DNA of 64,000 bases, from the NCBI RefSeq assembly GCF_029227855.1, contig NZ_CP074356.1; one strand, given 5' to 3'. The notes below the pieces were generated by a model. The model was not told where the DNA came from and did not search any database. It saw only the letters and a program-made list of their open reading frames with translations. A program made the translations under genes and the position numbers. The DNA is from Escherichia coli (lineage in GTDB: Bacteria > Pseudomonadota > Gammaproteobacteria > Enterobacterales > Enterobacteriaceae). This document shows positions 2,806-42,587 of the stretch, one piece after another; position 1 is the stretch's first letter; the number at the start of each line of letters is the position of its first letter.

Positions 2806-2807
2806 GA

Positions 2808-2841
2808 AAAAAACGGGTCACCTTCTGGCGACCCGTTTTTC
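2808..2841. terminator. Bidirectional rho-independent terminator between convergent speC and nupG
   Basis: Hairpin aaacgggtc-N10-gacccgttt flanked by an A-run and a T-run. Confidence 0.7.
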
Positions 2842-2850
2842 TTTGCGTAA

Positions 2851-10850: not shown

Positions 10851-10855
10851 TCACC

Positions 10856-10885
10856 TCGCCCCGGTATCGTGCCGGGGCTTTTCAC
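10856..10885 (+). terminator. Rho-independent terminator after ansB
   Basis: gccccggtatcgtgccggggc followed by ttttc. Confidence 0.65.
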
Positions 10886-10965
10886 TTCAGACTTACGTCC
10901 ATTGCCAATTTTCATTATCCTGATGATAATCACCGGGATAAATTATTCCTCGTGAGGGTTTTCGG

Positions 10966-11973
10966 GTGAAAAAGCAATGGATTGTTGGCACGGCGCTGCT
11001 TATGTTGATGACTGGTAATGTCTGGGCAGATGGCGAACCGCCAACTGAAAATATTTTAAAAGATCAATTCAAAAAGCAGTATCACGGCATTCTCAAGCTT
11101 GATGCCATCACCTTAAAAAATCTTGATGCTAAGGGTAATCAGGCCACCTGGTCAGCGGAAGGCGATGTCTCTTCCAGTGACGATCTCTATACCTGGGTCG
11201 GTCAGTTGGCAGATTACGAACTGCTCGAACAGACCTGGACGAAAGATAAACCGGTAAAATTCTCGGCGATGTTAACCAGTAAAGGAACGCCCGCGTCTGG
11301 CTGGTCGGTGAACTTTTACTCTTTTCAGGCGGTAGCCAGCGATCGTGGGCGGGTGGTCGACGATATCAAAACGAATAATAAATATCTGATCGTGAATAGC
11401 GAAGATTTCAATTATCGCTTTAGTCAGCTTGAGTCTGCGTTGAATAACCAGAAGAACTCGATTCCTGCGCTGGAAAAGGAAGTGAAAGCGCTTGATAAGC
11501 AAATGGTGGCGGCGCAGAAAGCAGCGGATGCATATTGGGGAAAAGATGCAAACGGTAAGCAAATGACCCGCGAAGACGCCTTTAAAAAAATTCACCAACA
11601 GCGTGATGAGTTTAATAAACAGAACGATAGCGAGGCTTTCGCGGTTAAATATGACAAAGAGGTTTATCAACCGGCGATTGTGGCATGTCATAAACAGAGT
11701 GCAGAGTGTTATGAAGTGCCAATTCAGCAGAAGCGAGATTTCGATATCAACGAACAACGGCGACAGACTTTTCTGCAATCACAAAAACTTAGCCGTAAAT
11801 TGCAGGATGACTGGATAACGCTCGAAAAAGGGCAATATCCGTTAACGATGAAAGTTTCAGAAATAAACAGTAAAAAAGTCGCGATTTTGATGAAAATTGA
11901 TGATATCAACCAGGCTAATGAACGCTGGAAAAAAGATACCGAACAATTGCGGCGCAATGGAGTGATTAAGTAA
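10966..11973 (+). CDS. yggM: DUF1202 periplasmic protein YggM (GTG start)
   Basis: 335-aa ORF MKKQWIVGTALLMLMTGNVWADGEPP... starting at gtg. Confidence 0.85.
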   Translation: MKKQWIVGTALLMLMTGNVWADGEPPTENILKDQFKKQYHGILKLDAITLKNLDAKGNQATWSAEGDVSSSDDLYTWVGQLADYELLEQTWTKDKPVKFSAMLTSKGTPASGWSVNFYSFQAVASDRGRVVDDIKTNNKYLIVNSEDFNYRFSQLESALNNQKNSIPALEKEVKALDKQMVAAQKAADAYWGKDANGKQMTREDAFKKIHQQRDEFNKQNDSEAFAVKYDKEVYQPAIVACHKQSAECYEVPIQQKRDFDINEQRRQTFLQSQKLSRKLQDDWITLEKGQYPLTMKVSEINSKKVAILMKIDDINQANERWKKDTEQLRRNGVIK

Positions 11974-11989
11974 CTCATGTTAAGTACCT

Positions 11990-12030
11990 TTGCCGGATAA
12001 TATAAAAAGTTATCCGGCAAATTATTTTTT
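11990..12030. terminator. Bidirectional terminator between convergent yggM and TRAP permease gene
   Basis: tgccggataa-tataaaaag-ttatccggca followed by attatttttt. Confidence 0.6.
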
Positions 12031-13330
12031 ACATTAGCCCTAGTAGCTGTGGAATGAACAAGGATATTTGCGGGATGTAAGTGATCATCATCAACGCGAT
12101 TAACAATGCGGCATAAAATGGCAGCAATGGTTTGATCAAATGTTGAATCTTCACACCTGAAATAGAACAACCAACAAATAGCGCACTACCCACCGGCGGT
12201 GTTAACAGCCCAATACAAAGGTTGGCCACCATCATAATACCGAAATGTACCGGATCCATTCCCAGCTCTTGTGCAATCGGCAAGAAGATTGGTGTGAAGA
12301 TTAGTACAGCCGGTGTCATGTCCATAAAGATGCCGACAATTAATAAGACGATATTAATCAGCAGCAATATGATCAGTGGGTTATCAGAAATCCCCATCAA
12401 CGCGTCGCTGATCATATAAGGAATATCAGCATTGGTCATTGACCAGGACATGCCCACGGAAAAACCGATCAACAGTAATACAATCGAAGTGGTAACAACC
12501 GATTCCAGAATCAGTTTGGGTAAATCGCGCCATTTTACTTCCCGGTAAATCAGCACCGAGAGAATAAATGTGTAGACAACGGCAATCGCAGACGCTTCAG
12601 TTGCGGTAAAAATGCCGCCCAGAATGCCGCCCATTACAATGAACACCAGAAGCAAACTTGGTAAGGCATCCAGAAACGCTTTACAGGCCTGAGCAAAGGT
12701 TGCTCTTTCTGAAAGTGGGTAGCCACGGCGTTTAGCAATAATGCCGCAGACTATCATTACCGCAAGACCCATTAAGATCCCTGGCAAATATCCCGCCATA
12801 AATAGCGATGCTACAGAAACGCCGCCAGCTGTCAGGGAAAACACAATTAACACGTTTGAGGGCGGTATCAGTAATCCAGTAATACAGGATGAGACGTTTA
12901 CAGCGGTAGAAAATGCCGGATCATAACCTTGTTTGGTCTGAATGGGATTCAGTGTGCCACCAACGGCAGCAGCTGCCGCAACGGCTGAACCAGAAATGGA
13001 ACCAAACATCATATTCGCCAGGACGTTCACATGACCAAGTGAACTAGGAACCCGACCAACCATTACCTGGGCGAGGTTAATCAAACGTATCGCAATACCG
13101 CCGCTGTTCATCAGCGTTCCGGCAAAGATGAAAAAGGGGATTGCCAATAGGGCAAAGTTATCCAGTCCATTAGCCAGTCGCTGCGAAACAGTGATTGCCG
13201 CGATATCCCAGGGAAACATCAACAGCATTGAAGCTACAGTGGCAATACCGATTGAGAACGAAATGGGCACACCAATAAAGACCAGCACAAAAAAACAGCC
13301 AAATAGTGTAAGCGCAATATAACTATCCAT
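12029..13330 (-). CDS. TRAP transporter large permease subunit (DctM family, 433 aa)
   Basis: Highly hydrophobic 433-aa ORF, MDSYIALTLFGCFFVLVFIGVPISFSIGIATVASMLLMFPWD...; typical DctM architecture. Start overlaps the stop of the upstream small permease. Confidence 0.85.
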   Translation of the reverse strand: MDSYIALTLFGCFFVLVFIGVPISFSIGIATVASMLLMFPWDIAAITVSQRLANGLDNFALLAIPFFIFAGTLMNSGGIAIRLINLAQVMVGRVPSSLGHVNVLANMMFGSISGSAVAAAAAVGGTLNPIQTKQGYDPAFSTAVNVSSCITGLLIPPSNVLIVFSLTAGGVSVASLFMAGYLPGILMGLAVMIVCGIIAKRRGYPLSERATFAQACKAFLDALPSLLLVFIVMGGILGGIFTATEASAIAVVYTFILSVLIYREVKWRDLPKLILESVVTTSIVLLLIGFSVGMSWSMTNADIPYMISDALMGISDNPLIILLLINIVLLIVGIFMDMTPAVLIFTPIFLPIAQELGMDPVHFGIMMVANLCIGLLTPPVGSALFVGCSISGVKIQHLIKPLLPFYAALLIALMMITYIPQISLFIPQLLGLM

Positions 13331-13842
13331 TAACTGGCCTCCTGCGCAGGTTGTTTCAGTTGTTGAATGCTTTGATTAATAAAACACAAGGCATAAAACA
13401 TCATCACCACTCCACTTAATGGCAGAATGATATATACGTATCCCATCGGTATTTGCATCGCGGCAGATACTTGTGATGTTGCCAGCGTTTTATCAATTAA
13501 TTTCAGGCCACCAGTCACAATGACCGAACCGGCAAAACCTAAAATGAGAATGTTAATGACTATACTAAGAAGTAATTGCTTGCGCTTATTCAGGGCGAGA
13601 GCAAATAAATCGATAGAGAGATGTCTCTGCGCGCCGACGGTATATGCAGCACCTAATAATCCTACCCAGATCATCAAAAAGCGTGCCAGCTCATCGGTTA
13701 ATGTACTTGGCTGGTTAAGTACGTAGCGGCTAAATACTTGCCAGACTACGCATACAACCAGAGCAAGCATTACGGCGACAGAAAACGCGGCAATGACGCG
13801 GTCTACCGCAAGTTTCAGGCGGTTAAATATCATTGTAAGCAT
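13330..13842 (-). CDS. TRAP transporter small permease subunit (DctQ family, 170 aa)
   Basis: 170-aa four-TM protein MLTMIFNRLKLAVDRVIAAFSVAVMLALVVCVVWQVFSRYVLNQPSTLTDELARF..., between the SBP and the large permease. Confidence 0.8.
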   Translation of the reverse strand: MLTMIFNRLKLAVDRVIAAFSVAVMLALVVCVVWQVFSRYVLNQPSTLTDELARFLMIWVGLLGAAYTVGAQRHLSIDLFALALNKRKQLLLSIVINILILGFAGSVIVTGGLKLIDKTLATSQVSAAMQIPMGYVYIILPLSGVVMMFYALCFINQSIQQLKQPAQEAS

Positions 13843-13877
13843 CCTGGAAAATCAGGGCCAGAGACTGGCCCGAAATA

Positions 13878-14864
13878 TTATTGAGCAGCGTTGTCGAATT
13901 TCTCTAACAAAGCAGCTTGTTTTGGATCTTTTTTGAAGTCGTCAAACAGAGGTTGAACTGCGGCACGGAATGGGGCTTTATCAACCTTAACGATTTCACC
14001 ACCCATAGCTTTCGCTTGAGCACGTGTGTCAGCGTCAATTTTTTCCCACAATTTTTGTTGATAAGCTTCGGATTTCTTCGCCGCTGTTTCGAGGATTTGT
14101 TGCTGTTCTGGGGTTAATTTATTCCATGTTTTGGTGGAGATAACCAAAAAGTCAGGAATTGAGGCATGTTCATCTTCAGAAAAGACTTTGGCAATTTCGA
14201 TATGTCGAGTCTGCACCCAGGAAGGCACGTTATTTTCTGCGCCATCTACTACACCTTGCTGCATCGCAGTATAAACTTCGCCAAATGAAATTGGAGTGGG
14301 TGAGCCACCCATCAGTTCAATCATTTTGATGGTGGTCGGGCTTGGCTGAACACGAATTTTCAGCCCTTTAAGATCTTCTGGCTTAGTAATCGGTTTTTTC
14401 GCATAGAAACTGCGTGTACCCGCTACATAAGCTGATAAAGCAAAAAAGCCTTTATCTTTTGTTGAATCCATAATTTCTTTACCAACTTCACCAAAAACCA
14501 CTTTGTTGAAGTGCGCCTGATCTTTAAATAAGAACGGCAAATTATAGATAGCATAAATATTATCAAAAGACTCCAGATCACTGGCGGAACCTTTGGTCAT
14601 ATCCAGTGCACCATTTTGCAACAACTCCATAGTTTCTCGCGCATTACCCATCTGGCTGCTGGGGTAAATACGGATCACCATATTACCTTTTGACAGCTGT
14701 TTTACTTCTTTCGCCAGCTTTTCAAAACTCTGATGTACAACATGACTTCTTTCCAGGTTGTGTGCTAACTTTAACGTCACTTTTTCTGCGGCGTTTACGC
14801 CAGTGCTAACCAGAGCCAGCAAGGATGCGCAGACTAATGAGCGGGTAAATGACCTCATTTTCAT
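13878..14864 (-). CDS. TRAP transporter periplasmic substrate-binding protein (DctP family, 328 aa)
   Basis: Signal peptide MKMRSFTRSLVCASLLALVSTGVNA, DctP-family fold; a conserved Arg (AGTRSFY) is consistent with carboxylate binding. Substrate unknown. Confidence 0.85.
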   Translation of the reverse strand: MKMRSFTRSLVCASLLALVSTGVNAAEKVTLKLAHNLERSHVVHQSFEKLAKEVKQLSKGNMVIRIYPSSQMGNARETMELLQNGALDMTKGSASDLESFDNIYAIYNLPFLFKDQAHFNKVVFGEVGKEIMDSTKDKGFFALSAYVAGTRSFYAKKPITKPEDLKGLKIRVQPSPTTIKMIELMGGSPTPISFGEVYTAMQQGVVDGAENNVPSWVQTRHIEIAKVFSEDEHASIPDFLVISTKTWNKLTPEQQQILETAAKKSEAYQQKLWEKIDADTRAQAKAMGGEIVKVDKAPFRAAVQPLFDDFKKDPKQAALLEKFDNAAQ

Positions 14865-15178: not shown

Positions 15179-16315
15179 TTACTCAGCGAGGAATAATTCA
15201 AGAAGTGAGTTTAAGAATAATTTACCATGCTTGGTTATCTGCCAGTAATCCGCACATTCTGTGAGATAACCTTGAGCGATAGCCTCGTCTAACTGAGAGC
15301 GAATAACTTCTTCAGAAAGGCCAGTATATTGGCTAAACTCCACGCGCGGCGCGGCCTCAAGCAGACGGAAGCGATTCATAAAGAACTCAAACGGTTTATC
15401 TGCAGCTTCGACATCACGCTGGCTTTCCAGATATCTTCCCTGCATAAAACCACGCGGATGACGCGTTTTGGTGGTACGCAGAATGCGACCATCCGGGAAG
15501 GTGACTTTGCCGTGCGCGCCGCAGCCAATACCAATGTAGTCGCCAAATCGCCAGTAGTTGAGATTGTGCTGGCACTGATAACCTGGTTTGGCGTAAGCGG
15601 ATGTTTCATACTGCTGATAGCCCGCTGCGGTTAATAACTGATGCCCCTGTTCGAATATATCCCACAACGCATCGTCGTCCGGCAGCACCGGCGGGCGAGA
15701 GCCAAACAGCGTATTAGGTTCGATGGTCAGTTGATACCAGGAAAGATGCGGCGGATTCAGTTCAATAGCCTGGCGCAGATCGCCTAGCGCCTCTTCCAGT
15801 GATTGATCCGGCAGCCCATGCATCAAATCAAGGTTAAAGCTACGTAACCCTAAACCGCTCGCCAGCTTTGCCGCTCGTTTCGCTTCTTGCGGGCCATGAA
15901 TGCGCCCAAGTCGTTTCAGCTTTTCTTCGCTAAAACTCTGCACACCAATAGAGATGCGGTTCACACCAGCACGCTGATAATCGACAAAGCGATCGGCTTC
16001 AACCGTACCAGGGTTCGCTTCCATAGTAATTTCTGCATCCGCTGCCAGCGGCAAACGCGCACGCACGCCGTCCAGCAGCGTTTGCATCGCCGGGCCGGAA
16101 AGCAGGCTCGGCGTACCACCGCCAATAAAGATTGTCTGCACTTCACGGCCCTGAGCGTAAGCCACGTCGTTGTCCAGATCGTTAAGCAGATGCTGAACAT
16201 AATCGTCGTGCGGCACTTCTCCTTTCAACGCGTGAGAGTTGAAATCGCAGTACGGGCATTTCTGCACGCACCACGGGATGTGAATGTAGAGACTCAGCGG
16301 CGGTAATTTAACCAT
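15179..16315 (-). CDS. hemW: Radical-SAM heme chaperone HemW (YggW, 378 aa)
   Basis: [28 protein letters not shown]... CxxxCxxC radical-SAM motif. Confidence 0.92.
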
Positions 16316-16901
16316 TACGTAAAGCGTCCAGCAGCAGTTTCAACGCCTGACCACGGTGGGAAATGGCGCTTTTTTCTTCGCGGGTCAGTTCGGCAGCGGT
16401 TTTCCCTTCGGAAGGAACGAAGAAAATTGGATCATAACCAAAGCCACCAGTGCCCGCTGGTTCACGAGTAATCACGCCCGGCCAGCTACCGTGGCACACC
16501 AGCGGAGTGGGATCTTCCGCGTGACGCAGATATACCAGCACGCAGTGGAAACGCGCCTGACGTTGGTCGTCCGGTACGTCTTTCATTGTTTCCAGCAGTT
16601 TTTGCAGATTCTTTTGATCGGTCGCGTCTTCACCGGAATAACGCGCGGAGTAAATCCCCGGTGCACCGCCAAGTACATCTACCGCCAGACCGGAGTCGTC
16701 GGCAATTGCCGGTAAACCGGTCACTTTTGCCGCATGGCGCGCTTTCAGAATCGCGTTTTCGATAAAGGTCAGGCCAGTTTCTTCAGCGGAATCTACACCG
16801 AGGTCTGTTTGGGCCACGATATCAAGACCGAAGTCGCTAAGCAGCGACGCCAGCTCACGCACTTTACCGGCATTGCCGGTTGCGAGGACAACTTTTTGCA
16901 T
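16308..16901 (-). CDS. rdgB: dITP/XTP pyrophosphatase
   Basis: 197-aa [24 protein letters not shown]...; overlaps hemW start by 8 nt. Confidence 0.92.
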
Positions 16902-16908
16902 AGGATAC

Positions 16909-17199
16909 CTAATTAATTAACGCCGCGATTTCTGGCGGGATTTGTTGCGGATTAATGATTTTAATTTGTTTGTGGCGGCCAAGTTCGCCTTTTTCAATCA
17001 CCACCTGGCTTTTGGCAACCCGGAATTGCTTACCGAGAAACTTCACCAGATGGCTGTTGGCCTGGCCGTCAACCGGCGGCGCGGTAATGGCGACTTTTAC
17101 CTCGTCGCCATGTAAACCGACAATAGAATCACGGCTGGCTTTCGGCTGAATATAGAGCCGTAAAACCAGACCGCCATCATTCACTGTTACGGCACTCAT
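16909..17199 (-). CDS. yggU: DUF167 protein YggU (96 aa)
   Basis: ORF 16909..17211; protein from [24 protein letters not shown]; start trimmed. Confidence 0.85.
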
Positions 17200-17762
17200 A
17201 ACGCCATCCACAGCCCCGGCAGCAGCATATTTCCGGTCGCCTGCAAGACTTCTGCGACACCCATATTGATGACATACAGCAGCAGAACGAGGATCATCGG
17301 CGAGAAATCAATCCCACCCATTGCCGGTAGCAGGCGGCGAATCGGGCGCAGCAGCGGATCGGCCAGCTGAATCAGCACGTATTCAATCGGGCTACGCCCC
17401 TGGCTTACCCAGCTCATAATCGCCATCACCAGCAGGACCCAGAAAATCAGCAGGCCGATGGTTTTCAGCAGAATCAGTAAACCGGCAATCCAGATGATTG
17501 GCAGGAAGGTCACCACTTTAAACAGCACGATGGCTTTGATGAAACTGAGAATGTACGCAACCAGCAGTGAGGCGCTATCAATGGGACCCATAGCCGGAAT
17601 AACGCGGCGCAGTGGCCCGATAATTGGCTGCGTTACCTTCACTACAAACTGTGAGAAGGGGTTGTAAAAATCACAATGAGCCCACTGCATCCAGATGCGT
17701 AATAACAGCACCATGGTATACAGCTCAATGACCGTTGAAAGCAGGAAAGTCAACGTATTCAT
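17196..17762 (-). CDS. yggT: YggT family inner-membrane protein
   Basis: 188-aa hydrophobic [32 protein letters not shown]... Confidence 0.88.
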
Positions 17763-17779
17763 GGCGTTCCTTTAATTCC

Positions 17780-18484
17780 TTATTTTTTAGAGTAATCACG
17801 CGCACCAAAAATTGCAGTGCCGATACGAACCATCGTGCTACCTGCCGCAATGGCGGCTTCCATATCGTCCGACATTCCCAGAGAGAGCGTGTCGATATGC
17901 GGGTAGCGCGTTTTCAGTCCGGCAAATGCTACAGCCATTTGGCGTGCAACTTCAAACTGCCTTACATATTCTGACTCAGGCGCAGGGATTGCCATCAGCC
18001 CGCGCAGACGTAAACGCGGTAGTTCAGCGACCGCAGCTGCCAGCTCGTCCAGCTCAGCCAGTTGAATCCCGGACTTACTGTTTTCGTCACTAATATTAAT
18101 TTGAATCAGTACGTTAAGAGGGGGAAGTTCTGCCGGGCGCTGATCGTTGAGGCGGGTAGCAATGCGCAAACGGTCGATGGTATGACACCAGTCGAAATGC
18201 TCTGCCACCAGGCGGCTTTTATTAGACTGCAACGGGCCAATAAAATGCCATTCTAATCCTGTTACGCCCAGTTCCTGAAAGTGGCGAATTTTATCTACCC
18301 CTTCCTGAACGTAGTTTTCACCAAATTGACGCTGCCCGGCATCAATGGCTTCTGCGATGGCGCTCGCAGGTTTTGTTTTACTGACTGCAAGCAGCGTAAT
18401 TTCTTCTGGAGAACGGCCGCAACGCGTTGCAGCCGCTGAGATTTTGTCCCGGACCTGTGCCAGGTTATGCGCAATATCGTTCAT
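17780..18484 (-). CDS. yggS: PLP-homeostasis protein YggS (234 aa)
   Basis: MNDIAHNLAQVRDKISAAATRCGRSPEEITLLAVSKTKP... Confidence 0.9.
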   Translation of the reverse strand: MNDIAHNLAQVRDKISAAATRCGRSPEEITLLAVSKTKPASAIAEAIDAGQRQFGENYVQEGVDKIRHFQELGVTGLEWHFIGPLQSNKSRLVAEHFDWCHTIDRLRIATRLNDQRPAELPPLNVLIQINISDENSKSGIQLAELDELAAAVAELPRLRLRGLMAIPAPESEYVRQFEVARQMAVAFAGLKTRYPHIDTLSLGMSDDMEAAIAAGSTMVRIGTAIFGARDYSKK

Positions 18485-29735: not shown

Positions 29736-30467
29736 ATGAAAAAATGGAAAGTACGTAGCGCGTTGATAGCATTAGCCGTGCTGCTGGCCGGTTGTTCCAG
29801 TAATGCGCAGTATAATAGCAGTGCATCAGGCAATGTCGGCACCGCCTGGGGTGGGGATGTACACTCATCGGTTCAGGGCGTATCTGCTGAACGAGTCTGG
29901 CGCGATCCGGCAGAGATGATCGTTATTAGTTATTCGACTACTGTTCCTTCGGGCTACGACCGCGTTTATAGCATTCGTATTAACGAACTTGAATATGCTA
30001 TTCGCGATGGTAATTTTAATTCTCTACCTATTACGCGGGTTTATGATTCGTCAAATAATGAACCACGCTATATTGTCCATGCCAGAGTAGGAATGAATTA
30101 TCAATTATATGTCCGCAATTACAGTCGTAACACCAACTACGAGATCGTTGCTACGGTTGATGGCCTGGATGTGCTGAACGGCAAACAAGGTTCGCTGAAT
30201 AACAACGGCTATATTGTGAATGCCGGAGATTCGTTAGCGATTAAAGGATTCCGCAAAGATAAACATACCGAAGCGGCTTTTCAGTTCGCCAACGTTGCTG
30301 ATTCCTACGCAGCCAATTCGGCGCAAGGCGATGTGCGTAATACCGGGGTAATCGGCTTTGCCGCCTTTGAATTACAAGGCTCGGCGCAAAACGCGATGCC
30401 GCCGTGCTCTGGACAAGCCTTTCCGGCAGATAACAATGGCTATGCGCCGCCACCGTGTCGGAAATAG
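29736..30467 (+). CDS. Uncharacterised lipoprotein (243 aa), not recognised as a K-12 gene
   Basis: Signal peptide with lipobox MKKWKVRSALIALAVLLAG-C-SSNA; Ser/Asn/Tyr/Gly-rich mature part; good RBS (gaggga) 7 nt upstream; AT-rich codon usage; own upstream AT-rich promoter region and downstream terminator. Confidence 0.75.
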   Translation: MKKWKVRSALIALAVLLAGCSSNAQYNSSASGNVGTAWGGDVHSSVQGVSAERVWRDPAEMIVISYSTTVPSGYDRVYSIRINELEYAIRDGNFNSLPITRVYDSSNNEPRYIVHARVGMNYQLYVRNYSRNTNYEIVATVDGLDVLNGKQGSLNNNGYIVNAGDSLAIKGFRKDKHTEAAFQFANVADSYAANSAQGDVRNTGVIGFAAFELQGSAQNAMPPCSGQAFPADNNGYAPPPCRK

Positions 30468-34598: not shown

Positions 34599-34618
34599 TC
34601 GGTAAGATGCTTTGTGAG

Positions 34619-34645
34619 AAGGGCCGCGAAAGCGGCCCTTTTTTT
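34619..34645. terminator. Rho-independent terminator after tktA, shared with the convergent SPFH gene
   Basis: gggccgc-gaaa-gcggccc followed by ttttttt; the SPFH gene stop overlaps the T-run. Confidence 0.7.
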
Positions 34646-35552
34646 ACTTAGTAGAGATAAACGGAACTGTACTGCCGGGGATCATGGTATCGGGTAGCTT
34701 ACCGTCCCAACGCTCAGCAGTGGTGAGGGCAACAAGTCCGGGATTATCCCGCAGAGCTTCACCGCGCAGGCGGATCGCTTCTGCTTCAGCCGCACTTTTT
34801 AAACGAATAGTTTCAGCCTCTGCCGCGCCTCTTACGCGAATAGTCTCAGCTTCTGCTTTGGCTGCCGCCAGTTTACTGTCTGCTTCTGCCTGGGCCTGAG
34901 TTACCGCTATTTGCGCCTGGATTTTCTCTGTTTCCAGATTTTGCTTACGTGTGGCAATGGCGACTTCTGCTTTCATTCGATCTTCAATCGATTTTTCATA
35001 AGCGTCAGAAAAATCAATATTTTCAATCTGAACACCATCAATCACCACCGGGCCAACAACGGCTTTACGCATTGCATTTTGCAGATCCTGAACCAGTTTT
35101 GTACGATCCTGTACCGCGCTAATGGCTGTATATTGCCCGAAAACGTTCTCCAGTTGGGTTGGCAGCTGGCGGACGATCAGACGCTCTTTTAAAGATTCAA
35201 TGGTGTTGTAGGTGGTATAAACCGCGCCTGCTTCTGAAGGTTTAATGTGGAAGCTGACTGATACTGTCATTTGTGCCGGTTGCTGGTCGCGGCTGTAGGC
35301 CTGTAATCCCTGATAAACCACAGCCTGATTACGCGTGGAAATTTTCTCCACGCTTTCCATAAAAGGGATCTTAAAACCCAGACCCGGCTCGGCAACTTTT
35401 ACGATTTTTCCGTAGCGCAGCAAAATGCCGCGTTCACCTTCATTAACGGTGTAATACGAGAGAAATGGCAGCACAACCACGGCAAGCACGCCAATGACGA
35501 TAGCAATAGATTTTTGTGGGCGAAATGAGGTTATTGAAACAGGTGCTTTCAT
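34644..35552 (-). CDS. SPFH/band-7 (prohibitin/HflC-like) membrane protein with C-terminal coiled-coil repeats (302 aa from MKAPV)
   Basis: ORF 34644..35588; N-terminal TM helix (IAIVIGVLAVVVLPFL), SPFH-like core, then Ala/Glu-rich repeats AEAETIRVRGA/AEAETIRLKSA/AEAEAIRLRGE. Start set at the Met preceded by the AGGAAG RBS. Not recognised as a K-12 gene at this position. Confidence 0.75.
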   Translation of the reverse strand: MKAPVSITSFRPQKSIAIVIGVLAVVVLPFLSYYTVNEGERGILLRYGKIVKVAEPGLGFKIPFMESVEKISTRNQAVVYQGLQAYSRDQQPAQMTVSVSFHIKPSEAGAVYTTYNTIESLKERLIVRQLPTQLENVFGQYTAISAVQDRTKLVQDLQNAMRKAVVGPVVIDGVQIENIDFSDAYEKSIEDRMKAEVAIATRKQNLETEKIQAQIAVTQAQAEADSKLAAAKAEAETIRVRGAAEAETIRLKSAAEAEAIRLRGEALRDNPGLVALTTAERWDGKLPDTMIPGSTVPFISTK

Positions 35553-35928
35553 ATGAATCTTCCTTGAGTAAAGTGGGGAATATGTCACATGAGGTGAGGA
35601 GAAAATAGCCGACAGGTGAGAATTCAGAATCTATAAAGGGGGATAGCGAAAAAACATTGCATTAGAAAAGTATGCTTTCGGATATTCAATAAATAAATGG
35701 CGATATGCATCACAAATACAATAACAAACAAAATATTGATTTTGTGATAAACATACCAAATACAAAGTTGACTTTAAAAATATCAATTTCATGTTGTTGT
35801 TATTTAAAGTTTTATTATTTTGACTAATGAGGTTTTTCTTCTCGCATGCCCAATTGCTTTCATTAAACCGCACGAGTATTTTATTTTTACCGCCGGACGG
35901 TACCCTAAAAATAAAATAAGGATAATTT

Positions 35929-36372
35929 ATGCGGCTTATTGATTATTTTCCAGAATCATCAATCTCAGTTATACATTCAGCAAAAGATTGGCAGGAAGCT
36001 ATCGATTTCTCGATGGCATCATTGCTGGATAAAAACTATATCAGCGAGAATTACATTCAGGCAATTAAAGATTCCACCATTAACAATGGCCCTTATTATA
36101 TTCTCGCGCCAGGTGTGGCAATGCCTCATGCGCGACCGGAATGTGGGGCGCTTAAAACCGGGATGTCTTTGACGTTACTTAAACAAGGCGTTTATTTTCC
36201 GGGGAATGACGAACCGATTAAATTACTCATCGGGCTTTCTGCTGCCGATGCCGATTCGCACATTGGCGCTATTCAGGCGTTAAGTGAATTACTGTGCGAA
36301 GAAGAAATACTCGAACAACTCTTAACAGCATCATCAGAAAAACAATTAGCGGACATTATCAGCCGCGGATAA
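35929..36372 (+). CDS. cmtB: Cryptic mannitol-type PTS enzyme IIA component
   Basis: 147-aa ORF MRLIDYFPESSISVIHSAKDWQEAIDFSMASLL... PTS EIIA(Mtl) fold with active-site His region. Confidence 0.88.
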   Translation: MRLIDYFPESSISVIHSAKDWQEAIDFSMASLLDKNYISENYIQAIKDSTINNGPYYILAPGVAMPHARPECGALKTGMSLTLLKQGVYFPGNDEPIKLLIGLSAADADSHIGAIQALSELLCEEEILEQLLTASSEKQLADIISRG

Positions 36373-36399
36373 TTACTCTCTCCTCTACAGGATAATATT

Positions 36400-37788
36400 A
36401 TGGAAAACAAGTCTGCTCGTGCAAAGGTCCAGGCTTTTGGGGGCTTTTTGACGGCAATGGTCATCCCCAATATCGGCGCTTTTATAGCCTGGGGTTTTAT
36501 AACGGCGTTATTTATTCCCACCGGCTGGCTGCCGAATGAGCATTTCGCCAAAATTGTCGGCCCGATGATTACCTATTTATTGCCCGTGATGATTGGTTCT
36601 ACTGGTGGTCATCTGGTCGGCGGTAAACGCGGGGCGGTCATGGGCGGAATAGGTACTATTGGTGTGATCGTTGGCGCAGAGATCCCGATGTTCCTTGGTT
36701 CGATGATTATGGGGCCGCTCGGTGGGCTGGTCATAAAATATGTCGATAAGGCACTGGAAAAACGCATACCTGCCGGTTTTGAGATGGTTATCAATAACTT
36801 CTCATTAGGTATTGCGGGGATGCTCCTTTGTCTGCTGGGTTTTGAAGTGATCGGCCCGGCGGTGTTAATTGCCAATACTTTCGTCAAAGAGTGTATTGAG
36901 GCGTTGGTACATGCGGGTTATCTGCCTCTGCTGTCAGTCATCAATGAACCGGCGAAAGTGCTTTTCCTCAATAACGCGATCGATCAGGGCGTCTATTATC
37001 CGCTGGGAATGCAACAGGCTTCGGTTAACGGTAAATCCATCTTCTTTATGGTGGCGTCCAATCCTGGGCCTGGATTAGGGCTGCTGCTGGCTTTTACCTT
37101 GTTTGGTAAAGGGATGAGTAAACGTTCTGCGCCAGGGGCGATGATTATTCACTTCCTCGGTGGGATCCACGAACTGTATTTCCCGTATGTGCTGATGAAG
37201 CCGCTGACCATTATTGCCATGATTGCGGGCGGTATGTCTGGCACCTGGATGTTTAACTTACTGGACGGTGGTCTGGTGGCTGGCCCAAGTCCGGGGTCTA
37301 TCTTTGCTTACCTGGCGCTGACGCCGAAAGGCTCATTCCTGGCGACAATTGCTGGTGTTACGGTAGGTACCCTGGTGTCCTTTGCTATCACTTCGCTGAT
37401 ACTGAAGATGGAAAAAACGGTGGAAACGGAGAACGAAGATGAGTTTGCTCAGTCAGCCAATGCGGTTAAGGCGATGAAACAAGAGGGTGCATTCTCGTTA
37501 AGCCGGGTTAAGCGTATCGCCTTTGTTTGCGATGCGGGGATGGGCTCCAGCGCGATGGGCGCGACCACCTTCCGTAAACGCCTGGAAAAGGCGGGGCTGG
37601 CAATAGAAGTAAAACATTACGCGATAGAAAACGTGCCTGCGGATGCCGATATCGTCGTTACTCATGCCAGTCTGGAAGGGCGCGTGAAACGTGTGACGGA
37701 TAAACCGCTGATATTGATTAATAACTATATTGGCGATCCAAAACTCGACACTTTATTTAATCAATTAACCGCCGAACATAAACACTGA
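36400..37788 (+). CDS. cmtA: Cryptic mannitol-type PTS enzyme IICB component
   Basis: 462-aa ORF MENKSARAKVQAFGGFLTAMVIPNIGAFIAWGFITALF...; EIIC membrane domain plus C-terminal EIIB (CDAGMGSS). Confidence 0.88.
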   Translation: MENKSARAKVQAFGGFLTAMVIPNIGAFIAWGFITALFIPTGWLPNEHFAKIVGPMITYLLPVMIGSTGGHLVGGKRGAVMGGIGTIGVIVGAEIPMFLGSMIMGPLGGLVIKYVDKALEKRIPAGFEMVINNFSLGIAGMLLCLLGFEVIGPAVLIANTFVKECIEALVHAGYLPLLSVINEPAKVLFLNNAIDQGVYYPLGMQQASVNGKSIFFMVASNPGPGLGLLLAFTLFGKGMSKRSAPGAMIIHFLGGIHELYFPYVLMKPLTIIAMIAGGMSGTWMFNLLDGGLVAGPSPGSIFAYLALTPKGSFLATIAGVTVGTLVSFAITSLILKMEKTVETENEDEFAQSANAVKAMKQEGAFSLSRVKRIAFVCDAGMGSSAMGATTFRKRLEKAGLAIEVKHYAIENVPADADIVVTHASLEGRVKRVTDKPLILINNYIGDPKLDTLFNQLTAEHKH

Positions 37789-37802
37789 TTACAGAGGTAA
37801 AA

Positions 37803-39080
37803 ATGAAAACCAAAGTTGCTGCTATTTATGGCAAGCGGGATGTCCGTCTGCGCGAATTTGAACTGCCAGAAATTACCGATAATGAACTGTTAGTGAGTGT
37901 AATTTCTGACAGCGTCTGTTTATCGACCTGGAAAGCGGCGTTACTCGGTAGTGAACATAAACGCGTACCCGACGATTTAGAAAATCATCCGGTCATTACC
38001 GGGCATGAATGTGCCGGGGTTATTGTTGAAGTGGGTAAAAATCTCACCGACAAATATAAAAAAGGCCAGCGTTTTGTATTGCAACCGGCGATGGGGTTAC
38101 CAAGCGGATATTCAGCGGGCTACAGCTACGAATATTTTGGCGGTAACGCCACCTATATGATTATTCCCGAAATCGCCATTAATTTGGGCTGCGTATTACC
38201 GTATCACGGCTCTTATTTTGCTGCGGCGTCGCTGGCAGAGCCTATGTGCTGCATTATTGGCGCTTATCATGCCAATTATCACACCACGCAATATGTTTAT
38301 GAGCATCGCATGGGCGTTAAACCTGGCGGCAATATTGCGCTGCTGGCATGTGCTGGTCCGATGGGCATTGGCGCTATCGATTATGCTATTAACGGCGGCA
38401 TACAACCGTCGCGGGTGGTGGTGGTCGATATCGACGACAAACGCCTGGCGCAGGTACAAAAGCTGCTGCCGGTGGAACTGGCGGCCAGTAAAGGCATTGA
38501 GCTAGTGTATATGAATACCAAAGGGATGAGCGATCCGGTCCAGACGCTGCGGGCGCTGACGGATGATGCCGGATTTGATGACGTATTTGTCTATGCAGCG
38601 GTGCCTTCAGTCGTCGAGATGGCTGATGAATTACTGGCGGAAGATGGCTGCCTGAACTTCTTTGCCGGGCCGACGGATAAAAACTTCAAAGTGCCGTTTA
38701 ATTTCTACAACGTCCATTACAACAGCACGCATGTCGTCGGTACTTCCGGCGGTTCAACGGACGACATGAAAGAGGCGATTGCGCTTAGCGCCACAGGGCA
38801 GTTGCAGCCGTCGTTTATGGTGACCCATATCGGTGGGCTGGATGCGGTGCCTGATACCGTGCTCAATCTGCCGGATATCCCCGGCGGTAAAAAACTCATT
38901 TATAACGGCGTCACCATGCCGCTCACTGCCATTGCCGATTTTGCCGAAAAAGGCAAAACCGATCCGCTGTTTAAAGAGCTGGCGCGGCTGGTTGAGGAAA
39001 CGCACGGCATCTGGAATGAGCAGGCCGAGAAATATCTGCTGGCGCAATTTGGCGTTGATATCGGGGAGGCCGCACAATGA
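37803..39080 (+). CDS. yggP: Zn-dependent alcohol/polyol dehydrogenase-like protein YggP
   Basis: 425-aa ORF MKTKVAAIYGKRDVRLREFELPEITDNELLV...GHECAGVIVEVG (MDR family). Confidence 0.85.
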   Translation: MKTKVAAIYGKRDVRLREFELPEITDNELLVSVISDSVCLSTWKAALLGSEHKRVPDDLENHPVITGHECAGVIVEVGKNLTDKYKKGQRFVLQPAMGLPSGYSAGYSYEYFGGNATYMIIPEIAINLGCVLPYHGSYFAAASLAEPMCCIIGAYHANYHTTQYVYEHRMGVKPGGNIALLACAGPMGIGAIDYAINGGIQPSRVVVVDIDDKRLAQVQKLLPVELAASKGIELVYMNTKGMSDPVQTLRALTDDAGFDDVFVYAAVPSVVEMADELLAEDGCLNFFAGPTDKNFKVPFNFYNVHYNSTHVVGTSGGSTDDMKEAIALSATGQLQPSFMVTHIGGLDAVPDTVLNLPDIPGGKKLIYNGVTMPLTAIADFAEKGKTDPLFKELARLVEETHGIWNEQAEKYLLAQFGVDIGEAAQ

Positions 39081-40042
39081 TGTCCCTGGCGTGGCCATTA
39101 TTTCGCGTTACGGAACAGGCAGCGTTGGCTGCCTGGCCGCAAACCGGATGTGGCGACAAAAATAAAATTGATGGCCTGGCGGTCACCGCGATGCGCCAGG
39201 CATTAAACGACGTCGCTTTTCGTGGGCGAGTGGTTATCGGCGAGGGAGAGATTGACCATGCGCCGATGCTGTGGATTGGCGAAGAGGTGGGCAAAGGCGA
39301 TGGGCCAGAAGTCGATATCGCGGTTGACCCGATTGAAGGTACGCGGATGGTGGCGATGGGGCAGAGCAATGCGCTGGCGGTCATGGCTTTCGCCCCTCGA
39401 GATAGCCTGTTACACGCGCCCGATATGTATATGAAAAAACTGGTTGTTAATCGGCTGGCGGCGGGCGCGATTGATCTGTCCATGCCTCTGGCGGACAACT
39501 TGCGCAACGTGGCGAAAGCGTTAGGCAAACCGCTGGACAAGCTGCGTATGGTTACGCTGGATAAACCGCGCCTGAGTGCCGCAATTGAGGAAGCAACACA
39601 GCTGGGCGTGAAGGTTTTTGCCCTGCCGGATGGCGATGTCGCCGCCAGCGTGCTGACCTGCTGGCAGGATAATCCTTACGATGTGATGTACACCATCGGC
39701 GGTGCGCCAGAAGGCGTGATTTCTGCCTGTGCCGTTAAAGCATTAGGCGGGGATATGCAGGCCGAGCTGATTGACTTTTGTCAGGCTAAAGGGGATTACA
39801 CGGAAAATCGGCAGATTGCAGAGCAGGAGCGCAAGCGTTGCAAGGAAATGGGCGTTGACGTTAACCGTGTGTACTCGCTCGATGAACTGGTGAGGGGGAA
39901 CGATATCCTCTTTAGCGCTACGGGCGTGACGGGCGGCGAGCTAGTGAACGGTATCCAACAGACGGCGAATGGGGTGCGGACGCAGACATTACTGATCGGC
40001 GGCGCGGACCAAACGTGTAATATAATAGACTCCCTGCATTGA
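39077..40042 (+). CDS. yggF: Fructose-1,6-bisphosphatase class II (GlpX-like) YggF
   Basis: 321-aa ORF MMSLAWPLFRVTEQAALAAWPQTGCGDKNKIDGLAVTAMRQAL...; 4-nt overlap with yggP. Confidence 0.88.
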   Translation: MMSLAWPLFRVTEQAALAAWPQTGCGDKNKIDGLAVTAMRQALNDVAFRGRVVIGEGEIDHAPMLWIGEEVGKGDGPEVDIAVDPIEGTRMVAMGQSNALAVMAFAPRDSLLHAPDMYMKKLVVNRLAAGAIDLSMPLADNLRNVAKALGKPLDKLRMVTLDKPRLSAAIEEATQLGVKVFALPDGDVAASVLTCWQDNPYDVMYTIGGAPEGVISACAVKALGGDMQAELIDFCQAKGDYTENRQIAEQERKRCKEMGVDVNRVYSLDELVRGNDILFSATGVTGGELVNGIQQTANGVRTQTLLIGGADQTCNIIDSLH

Positions 40043-40063
40043 TGGTGATCTATCGGAAGACCA

Positions 40064-40573
40064 ATGGCGACGCTGACAGAAGATGATGTGCTTGAGCAAC
40101 TGGAGGCACAGGACAATTTATTTTCATTTATGAAAACTGCGCATACCATTTTGCTCCAGGGGATACGCCAGTTTCTGCCGTCGCTGTTTGTCAATAACGA
40201 TGAAGAGATCGTGGAATATGCAGTGAAGCCGTTACTCGCCCAAAGCGGCCCGCTTGACGATATTGATGTTGCGCTGCGTTTGATTTATGCGCTGGGGAAA
40301 ATGGATAAATGGCTGTACGCCGATATCACGCATTTTTCCCAGTTCTGGCATTACCTGAACGAACAGAATGAAATGCCCGGATTTGCCGATGACATGACCT
40401 GGGATTTTATTAGCAACGTCAATAGCATAACCCGCAATGCGACTCTCTATGACGCGTTGAAAGCGATGAAGTTCGCCGATTTCGCCGTCTGGTCAGAGGC
40501 GCGTTTTAGCGGGATGGTCAAAACGGCGCTGACGCTGGCAGTAACGACAACCTTAAAGGAATTAACGCCGTGA
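40064..40573 (+). CDS. yggD: MtlR-like transcriptional regulator YggD
   Basis: 169-aa ORF MATLTEDDVLEQLEAQDNLFSFMKTAHTILLQG... Confidence 0.85.
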   Translation: MATLTEDDVLEQLEAQDNLFSFMKTAHTILLQGIRQFLPSLFVNNDEEIVEYAVKPLLAQSGPLDDIDVALRLIYALGKMDKWLYADITHFSQFWHYLNEQNEMPGFADDMTWDFISNVNSITRNATLYDALKAMKFADFAVWSEARFSGMVKTALTLAVTTTLKELTP

Positions 40574-41283
40574 AAATCGAACTGACGGTGAATGGACTAA
40601 AGGTACAGGCGCAGTACTCTGATGATGAAATTGAGAATGTTCATAAACCGCTACTGCGTATGCTGGCGGCCTTACAGACGGTAAATCCGCAGCGGCGTAC
40701 GGTGGTTTTTCTTTGCGCTCCGCCTGGTACAGGAAAATCGACTCTGACCACCTTCTGGGAATATCTTGCGCAACAAGACCCCGAACTGCCCGCTATTCAG
40801 ACGCTGCCGATGGATGGTTTTCATCATTACAATAGCTGGCTGGATGCGCATCAATTGCGCCCCTTCAAAGGCGCACCAGAGACATTTGACGTTGCGAAAC
40901 TGGCGGAAAATCTGCGCCAGGTAATGGAAGGGGATTGTACGTGGCCGCAGTACGATCGACAAAAGCATGATCCTGTTGAAGATGCGCTGCACGTTACCGC
41001 ACCCCTCGTCATCGTCGAAGGAAACTGGCTATTACTGGATGATGAAAAGTGGCAGGAGTTGGCATCTTTCTGCGATTTTTCTATTTTTATTCATGCACCT
41101 GCTCAAATTCTGCGGGAGCGCTTGATTAGTCGTAAAATTGCGGGAGGATTATCGCGGCAAGAAGCCGAAGCTTTTTATGCCCGAACCGATGGTCCCAATG
41201 TCGAGCGTGTGCTGGTGAATAGTCGTCAGGCCAATCTGATATTAGAGATGACCGAAGAAGGCAGATATCACTTCAAAAGCTGA
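40570..41283 (+). CDS. yggC: P-loop nucleoside/pantothenate-kinase-like protein YggC
   Basis: 237-aa ORF with Walker A APPGTGKST; 4-nt overlap with yggD. Confidence 0.85.
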   Translation: MKIELTVNGLKVQAQYSDDEIENVHKPLLRMLAALQTVNPQRRTVVFLCAPPGTGKSTLTTFWEYLAQQDPELPAIQTLPMDGFHHYNSWLDAHQLRPFKGAPETFDVAKLAENLRQVMEGDCTWPQYDRQKHDPVEDALHVTAPLVIVEGNWLLLDDEKWQELASFCDFSIFIHAPAQILRERLISRKIAGGLSRQEAEAFYARTDGPNVERVLVNSRQANLILEMTEEGRYHFKS

Positions 41284-41567
41284 CAATTTATTCCAGTTAT
41301 TGCAGGGGTATTATTACGCCAGCCTGGAATAAAGCCCCCTACAAAAGGGGATAAAAGTGTGATGTAAGTCAGATAAATGTCTTCTTCGGCTGGACAATCA
41401 TTCCTTTTATTCCACGTTTCGCTTATCCTAGCTGAAGCGTTTCAGTCGATTAAATGTTCGACAATTAACCAATCAGTCGCAGTTTGCGACAGGTAAGGTT
41501 TCCCCGGACGATTTGCTGGATTACTCTGTCTGGCAAATTTGCTCAGGGAAAACCTTGCAGGAGATCT

Positions 41568-42587
41568 ATGACCGTACGCGTAGCGATAAATGGCTTCGGT
41601 CGCATCGGGCGTAATGTGGTTCGTGCTTTGTATGAATCCGGACGCCGGGCGGAAATTACCGTGGTGGCAATCAACGAACTGGCGGATGCTGCGGGCATGG
41701 CGCATTTGTTGAAATATGACACCAGCCATGGCCGTTTTGCATGGGAAGTACGACAGGAACGCGATCAACTTTTTGTTGGTGATGACGCCATCCGCGTATT
41801 GCATGAACGTTCACTGCAATCGCTCCCCTGGCGTGAACTTGGCGTTGATGTAGTCCTCGACTGCACCGGCGTATATGGCTCCCGCGAGCATGGCGAAGCG
41901 CATATTGCCGCCGGGGCCAAAAAAGTGCTCTTTTCACATCCTGGCAGTAACGATCTCGACGCGACCGTTGTTTACGGCGTCAATCAGGATCAACTTCGTG
42001 CGGAACACCGCATCGTTTCTAACGCTTCCTGTACCACGAATTGCATAATTCCCGTCATCAAATTGTTAGATGATGCGTACGGTATTGAGTCCGGCACTGT
42101 GACCACAATTCACTCCGCCATGCACGATCAACAGGTTATTGATGCATACCATCCTGACCTGCGTCGCACCCGGGCAGCCAGCCAGTCGATCATTCCGGTC
42201 GATACTAAACTGGCCGCCGGTATCACACGATTTTTTCCGCAATTTAACGATCGCTTTGAAGCGATTGCGGTACGTGTGCCAACCATAAATGTGACGGCAA
42301 TCGATTTAAGCGTGACGGTGAAGAAACCTGTAAAAGCCAATGAAGTCAACCTGTTGCTGCAAAAAGCAGCACAAGGTGCATTTCATGGTATAGTTGACTA
42401 TACGGAATTGCCGTTGGTCTCTGTAGATTTTAACCACGATCCGCACAGTGCCATTGTCGATGGCACCCAAACCCGGGTCAGTGGCGCACACCTGATCAAA
42501 ACGTTGGTCTGGTGCGATAACGAATGGGGCTTTGCTAACCGAATGCTCGACACGACGTTAGCTATGGCTACTGTTGCTTTCAGGTAA
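41568..42587 (+). CDS. epd: D-erythrose-4-phosphate dehydrogenase (339 aa)
   Basis: ORF 41484..42587; protein from [37 protein letters not shown]; start trimmed. Confidence 0.93.

Follow-up and report, generated by a model that had tools for sequence, protein, structure and literature searches.

The cmtBA-yggPFDC operon of Escherichia coli: a conserved pair of CRP-like boxes 44 bp apart and a possible MtlR-type role for YggD

The cmtBA-yggPFDC operon, 'cryptic' since 1993, was analyzed in a stretch of 64,000 nucleotides from Escherichia coli (contig NZ_CP074356.1 of RefSeq assembly GCF_029227855.1; hereafter the window), together with the control region upstream of cmtB and the SPFH gene that adjoins it. 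Six co-oriented, closely packed open reading frames (ORFs) occupy positions 35929–41283, exactly as in a program-made ORF list. They are given below with their family matches (PTS, phosphotransferase system; EII, enzyme II of the PTS; MDR, medium-chain dehydrogenase/reductase).

35929–36372, plus strand: cmtB, 147 aa, mannitol-family PTS EIIA (PF00359, 2.8e-30; NF007358, 326 bits, cut-off 192)
36400–37788, plus strand: cmtA, 462 aa, mannitol-family PTS EIICB (PTS_EIIC, PF02378, and PTS_IIB, PF02302, above cut-offs)
37803–39080, plus strand: yggP, 425 aa, Zn-dependent MDR dehydrogenase (ADH_N and ADH_zinc_N, above Pfam cut-offs)
39077–40042, plus strand: yggF, 321 aa, paralogue of class II, GlpX-type fructose-1,6-bisphosphatase (TIGR00330, 585 bits, cut-off 259)
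40064–40573, plus strand: yggD (fumE in RefSeq), 169 aa, MtlR family (PF05068, 1e-52)
40570–41283, plus strand: yggC, 237 aa, GTG start, P-loop kinase (NF006742, 507 bits, cut-off 402)

The stop codon of yggP and the start codon of yggF share the 4 nt ATGA (39077–39080), and those of yggD and yggC share GTGA (40570–40573, also 4 nt); the remaining gaps within the cluster measure 27, 14 and 21 nt. A preliminary description, made from the letters of the window alone, had named these six genes, their families and both overlaps, and the ORF list and the Pfam and NCBIfam searches agree with it on all three. Its statements that the cluster is coherent, lacks an assigned substrate and adjoins epd-pgk-fbaA are likewise supported. 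An Rfam search gave no match, and internal promoters and terminators did not rise above chance.

The cluster itself is not new. A megablast search with positions 35400–41400 found a match in 5425 of 5426 complete E. coli genomes. Strain JNEC-KY178 matched at 100%; its RefSeq annotation reads cmtB, cmtA, yggP, glpX (yggF), fumE (yggD) and yggC, with tkt and a minus-strand 'prohibitin family protein' upstream and epd, pgk and fbaA downstream. Compared with K-12 MG1655, all six proteins are full length and 94.5–99.8% identical, and the gene set, gene order, overlaps and tktA and epd-pgk-fbaA neighbours of the K-12 operon (b2934–b2928) are alike in the window. The cluster is thus the K-12 core operon cmtBA-yggPFDC, intact and already described; both this name and a CRP-dependent promoter are in the literature (PMC3105977, PMC12412646).

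The region between the SPFH gene and cmtB had been called AT-rich, and the GC content over 35500–36250 is indeed 0.33–0.38. The following features were located in it.

35553–35928: AT-rich divergent control region from the SPFH gene to cmtB, 376 bp; from about 35655 onwards homologous to, and colinear with, the ancestral tktA-cmtB spacer
35699–35714: CRP box 1, GGCGAtatgcaTCACA, centred at −222.5 from the cmtB ATG, aligning with K-12 CGTGTtgtagaTCACA
35743–35758: CRP box 2 (predicted), TGTGAtaaacaTACCA, centred at −178.5, exactly 44 bp from box 1
35847–35928, plus strand: proximal segment shared with K-12, with the best-conserved blocks of the spacer, a candidate core promoter and the Shine-Dalgarno sequence AAGGA
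35854–35859 and 35877–35882: candidate core promoter, −35 TTGCTT and −10 TATTTT separated by 17 nt, a guess made by eye from conservation

Conserved blocks were taken from an alignment of the spacers of 11 taxa that carry no SPFH gene at this position, and two of the blocks resembled CRP sites. Sites were scored by a scan for TGTGA-N6-TCACA with at least 7 of 10 matches, and spacings were measured from centre to centre. As a positive control, the scan was applied upstream of K-12 mtlA, where it recovered five sites at spacings of 43, 44, 73 and 44 bp, equal to the published values. Upstream of cmtB the two boxes lie exactly 44 bp apart in 15 of 16 aligned spacers, mostly at −222.5 and −178.5 from the ATG and with no insertion or deletion between them. 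The sequence between the boxes is not conserved, and the spacer as a whole is only 45–60% identical between genera. A box at +44 bp from box 1 was present in all 30 Enterobacteriaceae loci, reaching at least 7 of 10 matches in 28 and 5–6 of 10 in the other two. The cmtB pair is the only one in the window in which both boxes score at least 8 at a spacing of 43–46 bp, and none of 5000 shuffles of either of the two E. coli alleles described below produced such a pair; at a looser threshold, which gives a background from real sequence, a 43–46 bp pair occurred in 6 of 318 tiles of 400 bp taken from the window. No class I or class II CRP geometry fitted by eye held consistently from genus to genus, and this approach was dropped. 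An 80-aa ORF on the minus strand (35631–35873), which overlaps both boxes, has no family match, is unannotated and was taken as spurious.

Of the two boxes, box 1 is a CRP site with experimental backing, both in vitro and in vivo. The genomic SELEX (systematic evolution of ligands by exponential enrichment) site listed for 'cmtBA-yggPFDC', CGTGTTGTAGATCACA, is box 1 of K-12 (supplement of PMC3105977), and its reverse complement is listed at cmtB in a CRP chromatin immunoprecipitation (ChIP) sequencing study of enterotoxigenic E. coli (PMC4287617). A promoter fragment that spans the whole cmt spacer loses its activity in a crp mutant. A PcmtA-gfp fusion was found to be CRP-controlled and to be induced about six-fold by uridine (PMC12412646).

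The distribution of the operon was assessed by scanning species-representative genomes with CmtB, which returned 33 loci, and by mapping the neighbouring genes. The order loiP-tktA-cmtBA-yggPFDC-epd-pgk-fbaA is kept in about 12 enterobacterial genera, with full synteny in Citrobacter, Silvania, Raoultella, Lelliottia, Enterobacter, Phytobacter, Superficieibacter, Huaxiibacter and Salmonella (subsp. arizonae and diarizonae). Outside this synteny, the six genes recur with unchanged order in Hafnia, Serratia fonticola, Yersinia frederiksenii and Providencia, where the neighbourhoods are unrelated and contain neither tktA nor epd. This indicates that the six genes form a self-contained cassette that can be passed on horizontally, and that adjacency to the glycolytic operon is not functionally required. 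The cassette of Aliivibrio fischeri comprises IIA, IICB, YggP, an MtlR-like protein, a PRK-type kinase and a PHP-domain phosphatase that replaces the GlpX-type enzyme and whose gene closes the operon (10603–11349 in that locus); this exchange of non-homologous phosphatases suggests that a phosphatase step is part of the pathway. On a Lachnospiraceae contig the cassette consists of a phosphofructokinase, a PRD-type regulator, IIA, kinase, IICB and YggP. Homologues of YggP are widespread across genomes. The invariant core of the cassette is therefore the PTS together with YggP and YggC. Gammaproteobacterial cassettes encode two more proteins, one of the MtlR family and a phosphatase for sugar bisphosphates, which is the GlpX-type YggF or, in Aliivibrio, the PHP enzyme.

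The five loci from Hafnia, Serratia, Yersinia, Providencia and Aliivibrio also allowed the CRP pair to be followed beyond the conserved synteny. All five contain a CRP-like pair upstream of the IIA gene, at spacings of 46, 45, 45, 44 and 45 bp; by shuffling, the chance of such a pair is 0.013–0.051 per locus. Hence, in Gammaproteobacteria an MtlR-like gene and a CRP pair at about 44 bp travel with the cassette.

Some loci were irregular. The YggP match of Citrobacter koseri NCTC10786 is fragmented and only 50–57% identical, and in C. amalonaticus AUH_CA_2023_1 cmtA and yggF do not match over half their length; either the cassette has decayed in some lineages or the assemblies are faulty. Furthermore, a contig labelled 'Chryseobacterium sp. 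18061' carries the complete enterobacterial loiP-tktA-cmt-ygg-epd-pgk-fbaA synteny, and on a 297-bp contig labelled 'Alkalicoccobacillus porphyridii' there is a match of 98% identity to E. coli CmtB. Enterobacterial sequence under these labels looks like mislabelling or contamination in public assemblies.

A spacing of 44 bp has a precedent in the mannitol operon. MtlR, which contains no DNA-binding domain, represses mtl by bridging two CRP dimers that stand 43–46 bp apart, with an optimum of 44–45 bp (PMC13421365; Nucleic Acids Research, July 2026). Spacing alone suffices, as a malK operator acquires MtlR binding once its spacing is changed to 44 bp; residues R167 and L178 of MtlR contact CRP, and either R167E or L178A abolishes the contact; and MtlR is released from mtl once the dephosphorylated IIB loop of EII-Mtl (residues 383–393, with Cys384) captures it at the membrane (PMC13421365). 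Neither cmt nor YggD occurs in that paper.

YggD matched only models of MtlR-type regulators in Pfam and NCBIfam, PF05068 covering its full length, and in these searches it matched no known fumarase family, whether class I (Fe-S) or class II. Structures of YggD (3C8G) and MtlR (6KCR and 3BRJ) were retrieved from the PDB. Alignment by hhalign of 14 YggD and 14 MtlR orthologues gave a probability of 98.5% over YggD residues 6–167 and placed Arg147 and Leu158 of YggD, in the C-terminal helix, opposite the CRP-contact residues Arg167 and Leu178 of MtlR. Both residues are invariant in all 14 YggD orthologues. When the alignment was widened with the YggD-like proteins of Hafnia, Serratia, Yersinia, Providencia and Aliivibrio, down to 33% identity, and with two MtlRs at 24–26%, only 19 columns remained invariant, and those of Arg147 and Leu158 were among them. 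The RefSeq label of this MtlR-like protein is now 'fumarase E', a name that is probably misleading.

The transporter resembles its mtl counterpart as well. CmtA is 53% identical to MtlA and scores just above the cut-offs of TIGR00851 mtlA (480 bits, cut-off 468) and NF011663 (593, cut-off 589). Its IIB loop, V376-C377-DAGMGSSAM386, equals MtlA 383–393 at 10 of 11 positions, with C377 aligned to C384 of MtlA, and His67 of CmtB (AMPHA) aligns to the phosphorylated His554 of MtlA (AVPHG). The 'mannitol' label of CmtBA, drawn from homology only, is to be read as putative. The cmt operon is therefore similar to E. coli mtlADR (PMC13421365) in its mannitol-family EIICB with a near-identical IIB active-site loop, in the conserved EIIA histidine, which in cmt resides on the separate protein CmtB, in an operon-encoded MtlR-family protein with both CRP-contact residues conserved, and in upstream CRP boxes 44 bp apart at a crp-dependent promoter. 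By contrast, cmt has two CRP boxes, weaker than those of mtl, where there are five; YggD, with 169 aa, lacks the first ca. 23 residues of MtlR and is only 27–36% identical to it; and the dehydrogenase is the MDR zinc enzyme YggP, not MtlD, with a kinase and a bisphosphatase added.

The window thus contains a known, intact operon. On the most likely reading, it works as a self-contained PTS cassette under the control of CRP and YggD, a reading to which we give about even odds (roughly 0.5). Cyclic AMP-bound CRP would occupy the two boxes, 44 bp apart and some 180–220 bp upstream of cmtB. A YggD dimer, which like MtlR has no DNA-binding domain, would use Arg147 and Leu158 of its C-terminal helix to bridge the two CRP dimers and would block activation, as MtlR does at mtl. 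Transport of the substrate would leave the IIB domain of CmtA dephosphorylated, YggD would be captured at the membrane, and the operon would be derepressed. MtlR itself may cross-bind the cmt CRP pair, by the published spacing rule. Repression by YggD until substrate appears would explain the 'cryptic' look of the operon. The part of this reading that concerns YggD, namely that it is not primarily a fumarase and acts as a second MtlR-type, CRP-bridging anti-activator that docks on the 44-bp pair, is sequestered by dephosphorylated CmtA and keeps cmt silent, is put forward tentatively, at a little less than an even chance. The proposal that cmt has the second operator, after mtl, of the MtlR/CRP-spacing type and that YggD regulates it is specific, modestly new and apparently unpublished.

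Several observations weigh against this reading. A consensus scan for sigma-70 promoters found none upstream of cmtB in either allele at its threshold. CRP box 2 is a prediction with one weak half-site, scoring 8 of 10 in the window and 5–6 of 10 in two species. The pair would lie at about −138 and −182 from the best candidate core promoter, if that promoter is real, and thus far upstream, an arrangement also used by mtl (PMC13421365). The same paper declared the 43–46 bp spacing unique to mtl among annotated CRP-regulated units. The chemistry of the cassette is guesswork, given that YggP scores below curated cut-offs and that 'sorbose-1-P reductase' and 'fructokinase' are unverified labels. 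Glucose in the medium would keep CRP off DNA; ChIP-exo of tagged YggD yielded no peaks, the growth medium of that experiment not having been checked (PMC8464067). The same study describes YggD as 'verified as fumarase E', citing a reported fumarase activity in vitro (PMC8464067).

The last two points would be expected if cmt had an ordinary multi-site CRP promoter, with YggD an enzyme (fumarase E) or at any rate devoid of a role in transcription, and if a rare substrate made the operon seem cryptic. As this simpler explanation would have it, CRP dependence is the sole regulation shown by experiment, and the cmt boxes are weaker than those of mtl (8 of 10 matches against 9–10 of 10). It does not account, however, for exact 44-bp phasing kept in about 12 genera despite the low identity of the spacer, nor for the recurrence of the pair in all five distant cassettes, the presence of an MtlR-family gene in every gammaproteobacterial version of the cassette, or the invariance of both validated CRP-contact residues; moreover, a spacing of 44 bp between CRP sites is, by the published rule, sufficient to recruit MtlR (PMC13421365). 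Plain activation by CRP is thus considered rather unlikely, while keeping appreciable weight.

If CRP and YggD do control cmt in the proposed manner, the MtlR-type repressor that reads spacing would be no curiosity of one operon and would be one of a small family, with at least one more target that is widely distributed, contradicting the published uniqueness of the 43–46 bp CRP spacing to mtl in E. coli. Cross-talk between MtlR and YggD would be predicted for the two mannitol-family systems, and deletion of yggD, possibly combined with that of mtlR, would offer a simple way to switch on the operon and find its substrate.

What the cassette does with its substrate can be read from the enzymes with much less assurance. 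YggP contains the motifs of its family (Cys39, Gly-His-Glu at 67–69 and the nucleotide-binding AGPMG), but its family assignments fall far below curated cut-offs, the best curated NCBIfam match being IolM with 87 bits against a cut-off of 450. Close homologues carry the database names 'L-sorbose 1-phosphate reductase' and 'oxidoreductase linked to yggC', labels that are unverified. YggF matches PF03320 at 1e-121 and the E. coli GlpX structures in the PDB at 1e-110, a family match from which a bisphosphatase activity is predicted. YggC has the Walker A motif GTGKST at residues 54–59 and belongs to the PRK/Udk/PanK superfamily; NF006742 names a 'nucleoside/nucleotide kinase family', distant matches to PanK and Udk were found, and the nearest solved structure, 3C8U (1e-21), was deposited as 'fructokinase', again an unverified label. 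A published prediction makes YggC a kinase of sugars or polyols (PMC3223725).

The most likely route would start with delivery of a hexitol or ketose 1-phosphate by the PTS. YggP would interconvert ketose 1-phosphate and hexitol phosphate, YggC would add a second phosphate at the other end, and the bisphosphate would be dephosphorylated by YggF (by the PHP enzyme in Aliivibrio) or else cleaved by an aldolase. Parallels exist in the sor and fru systems, in which the PTS yields a ketose 1-phosphate; in sor, an MDR reductase of the SorE type acts next to the phosphorylated carbon, and the unverified database labels of YggP homologues point to SorE, and in fruBKA a dedicated kinase makes the 1,6-bisphosphate. 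YggC, a P-loop kinase of the PRK/Udk type, is unlike the FruK family, and we know of no sor or fru pathway that encodes a GlpX-type phosphatase. Taken as a whole, this hexitol/ketose-phosphate route is weakly inferred and, on our rough estimate, doubtful.

The names attached to YggC, together with the response of the promoter to nucleosides, raise the question of a nucleoside-linked system, in which the tandem CRP sites would belong to a CytR-type nucleoprotein operator and YggC would be a nucleoside kinase. This would explain why PcmtA-gfp was induced by uridine, inosine, guanosine, cytidine and adenosine (PMC12412646), and the family name of YggC and its distant similarity to Udk agree with it. 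Yet uridine induced 14 sugar-transporter promoters in the same study, so that the effect is not specific to cmt, and the fructokinase label of 3C8U and the published prediction of a sugar or polyol kinase (PMC3223725) point elsewhere. A TGCAA-like motif lies between the boxes in K-12 but is not conserved in other genera. The CRP sites of known CytR promoters, furthermore, are spaced at roughly 30–53 bp, not fixed at 44. As the motif is specific to K-12 and the nucleoside induction is not specific to cmt, CytR-type regulation was set aside, and a nucleoside-linked system is regarded as very improbable.

Upstream of the control region, the window differs from K-12 by two further features.

34644–35552, minus strand: SPFH/Band_7 gene, 302 aa (Pfam Band_7, 3.5e-30), 'prohibitin family protein' in the RefSeq annotation
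34620–34645: G+C-rich hairpin with a T-run, read from the sequence, between the tktA stop codon (34598) and the stop codon of the SPFH gene (34644)

The preliminary description had taken the SPFH gene for an insertion, and outgroup genera bear this out. Ten representative spacers, including those of K-12 and Escherichia sp. E1V33, place tktA and cmtB 302–347 bp apart. Beyond E. coli the gene was found in E. albertii, E. whittamii and two further Escherichia species representatives; among the mapped species-representative loci, it was absent from this position in Escherichia sp. E1V33 and in every other genus. Because outgroup genera have short spacers that do not contain it, the K-12 form is structurally ancestral and the SPFH gene a true insertion, specific to Escherichia, between the tktA terminator and CRP box 1. 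The gene stands outside the cmt module but now shares a divergent control region with cmtB.

The SPFH-type segment is present in 1830 of 5426 E. coli genomes (about 34%) and the K-12-type segment in 3595 (about 66%), together 5425. Identity of the tktA-cmtB spacer to that of K-12 throughout would have meant that the insertion had left the cmt promoter untouched, but the two are far from identical: the spacer measures 1330 bp in the window against 313 bp in K-12, with 82 bp in common. Homology to K-12, as detected by blastn, ends one base past the tktA stop codon and restarts at position 35847, and within the spacer only the 82 bp that precede the cmtB ATG match (81/82, 99%). Relative to K-12, the window adds the minus-strand SPFH gene, another terminator and a diverged distal control region. 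The ancestral tktA terminator, which aligns between K-12 and outgroup genera, is missing from the SPFH allele, where the hairpin at 34620–34645 takes its place. Over the distal control segment, from CRP box 1 to −83, window and K-12 sequences agree at only about 46%, which makes them as divergent as sequences of different genera. The homology of this segment was nevertheless recovered by local alignment, in which positions 41–205 of the K-12 spacer are colinear with 35655–35819 of the window (score 73, against 39 ± 5.7 and a maximum of 56 for shuffled sequences), and in the multi-genus alignment the SPFH-type region is in register with all other spacers. The two alleles thus differ by more than the insertion, the whole distal regulatory segment being deeply diverged.

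Three details were noted at this locus. The spacer of Escherichia sp. E1V33 is of the K-12 type and 99% identical to that of K-12; together with the abrupt switch from about 46% to 99% identity 82 bp before cmtB, this suggests old haplotypes moved by recombination (34599–35846). Some SPFH-type strains have about 160–350 extra bp between the tkt stop codon and the SPFH gene, visible as split matches. A second SPFH copy elsewhere was considered and rejected, since in strain JNE21-003 the two pieces proved to belong to one locus, where tkt and the SPFH gene stand about 350 bp further apart (2633–3025 in that locus). Finally, a third CRP-like 16-mer, TGGGGaatatgTCACA (35574–35589), lies 22–37 bp upstream of the start codon of the SPFH gene, which it might serve.

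The preliminary description had further suggested that the insertion could affect cmt expression, as it would if upstream regulatory sites had been displaced or removed. Such an effect would fit the loss of K-12 homology 82 bp from the ATG and the low identity of the distal region. The strong half-site of box 2 lies on opposite sides in the SPFH and K-12 allele types, and the region also serves a divergent gene and contains the extra CRP-like site at 35574–35589. The insertion point, however, is 146 bp upstream of box 1, so no recognizable site was removed or separated: both boxes score 8 of 10 in either allele, at the same spacing and at identical distances from the ATG, and the conserved blocks downstream are all retained. 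Both alleles, moreover, are common and stable. From the equal box scores and distances, gross disruption of cmt control is unlikely, and expression changes through displaced or lost sites are held to be improbable; subtle differences between alleles are possible, given the flipped half-site of box 2, the extra CRP-like site and the divergent gene that shares the region. As a gene cluster, cmt belongs to the textbook content of K-12, and the neighbouring insertion is real and apparently non-disruptive. CmtAB promotes aminoglycoside uptake, and the cmtA promoter is hence of recent interest (PMC12412646); natural promoter alleles in a third of E. coli strains could bear on this uptake phenotype.

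Minor observations concern the remainder of the operon and its surroundings. Divergence from K-12 is mosaic over 40570–42587, where yggC DNA is 92.7% identical and the adjoining epd 100%, which points to recombination with a breakpoint within the yggC-epd spacer or close to it. This spacer also contains TGTGATGTAAGTCAGA (41358–41373), one mismatch away from the K-12 CRP SELEX site listed for epd-pgk-fbaA (supplement of PMC3105977). A 3.1-kb block on the opposite strand separates yggC from epd in many species, E. albertii, E. whittamii and several Citrobacter among them; it encodes two ABC ATPases, the S component of an energy-coupling factor (ECF) transporter and a PCC-domain protein (e.g. 15300–18400 and 11750–14830 in two loci) and is absent from the window and from K-12, where the gap is 284 bp. 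This block was considered as a source of extra pathway genes and rejected, its ECF transporter and PCC-domain genes being unrelated to the module.

Within yggP, a sigma-54 site has been mapped by ChIP in K-12 (PMC4591121), and its counterpart in the window differs at one position.

38323–38339, plus strand: intragenic sigma-54-type site in yggP, CTGGCGGCAATATTGCG, with one mismatch to the K-12 site at the last base of the −12 element (TGCA to TGCG)

Lastly, the gap between speA and speB in the window contains a gene of low GC content (0.44–0.46) for a 243-aa 'hypothetical protein' (29736–30467, plus strand). As speA and speB are only 137 bp apart in K-12, this gene represents a second insertion in the same neighbourhood.

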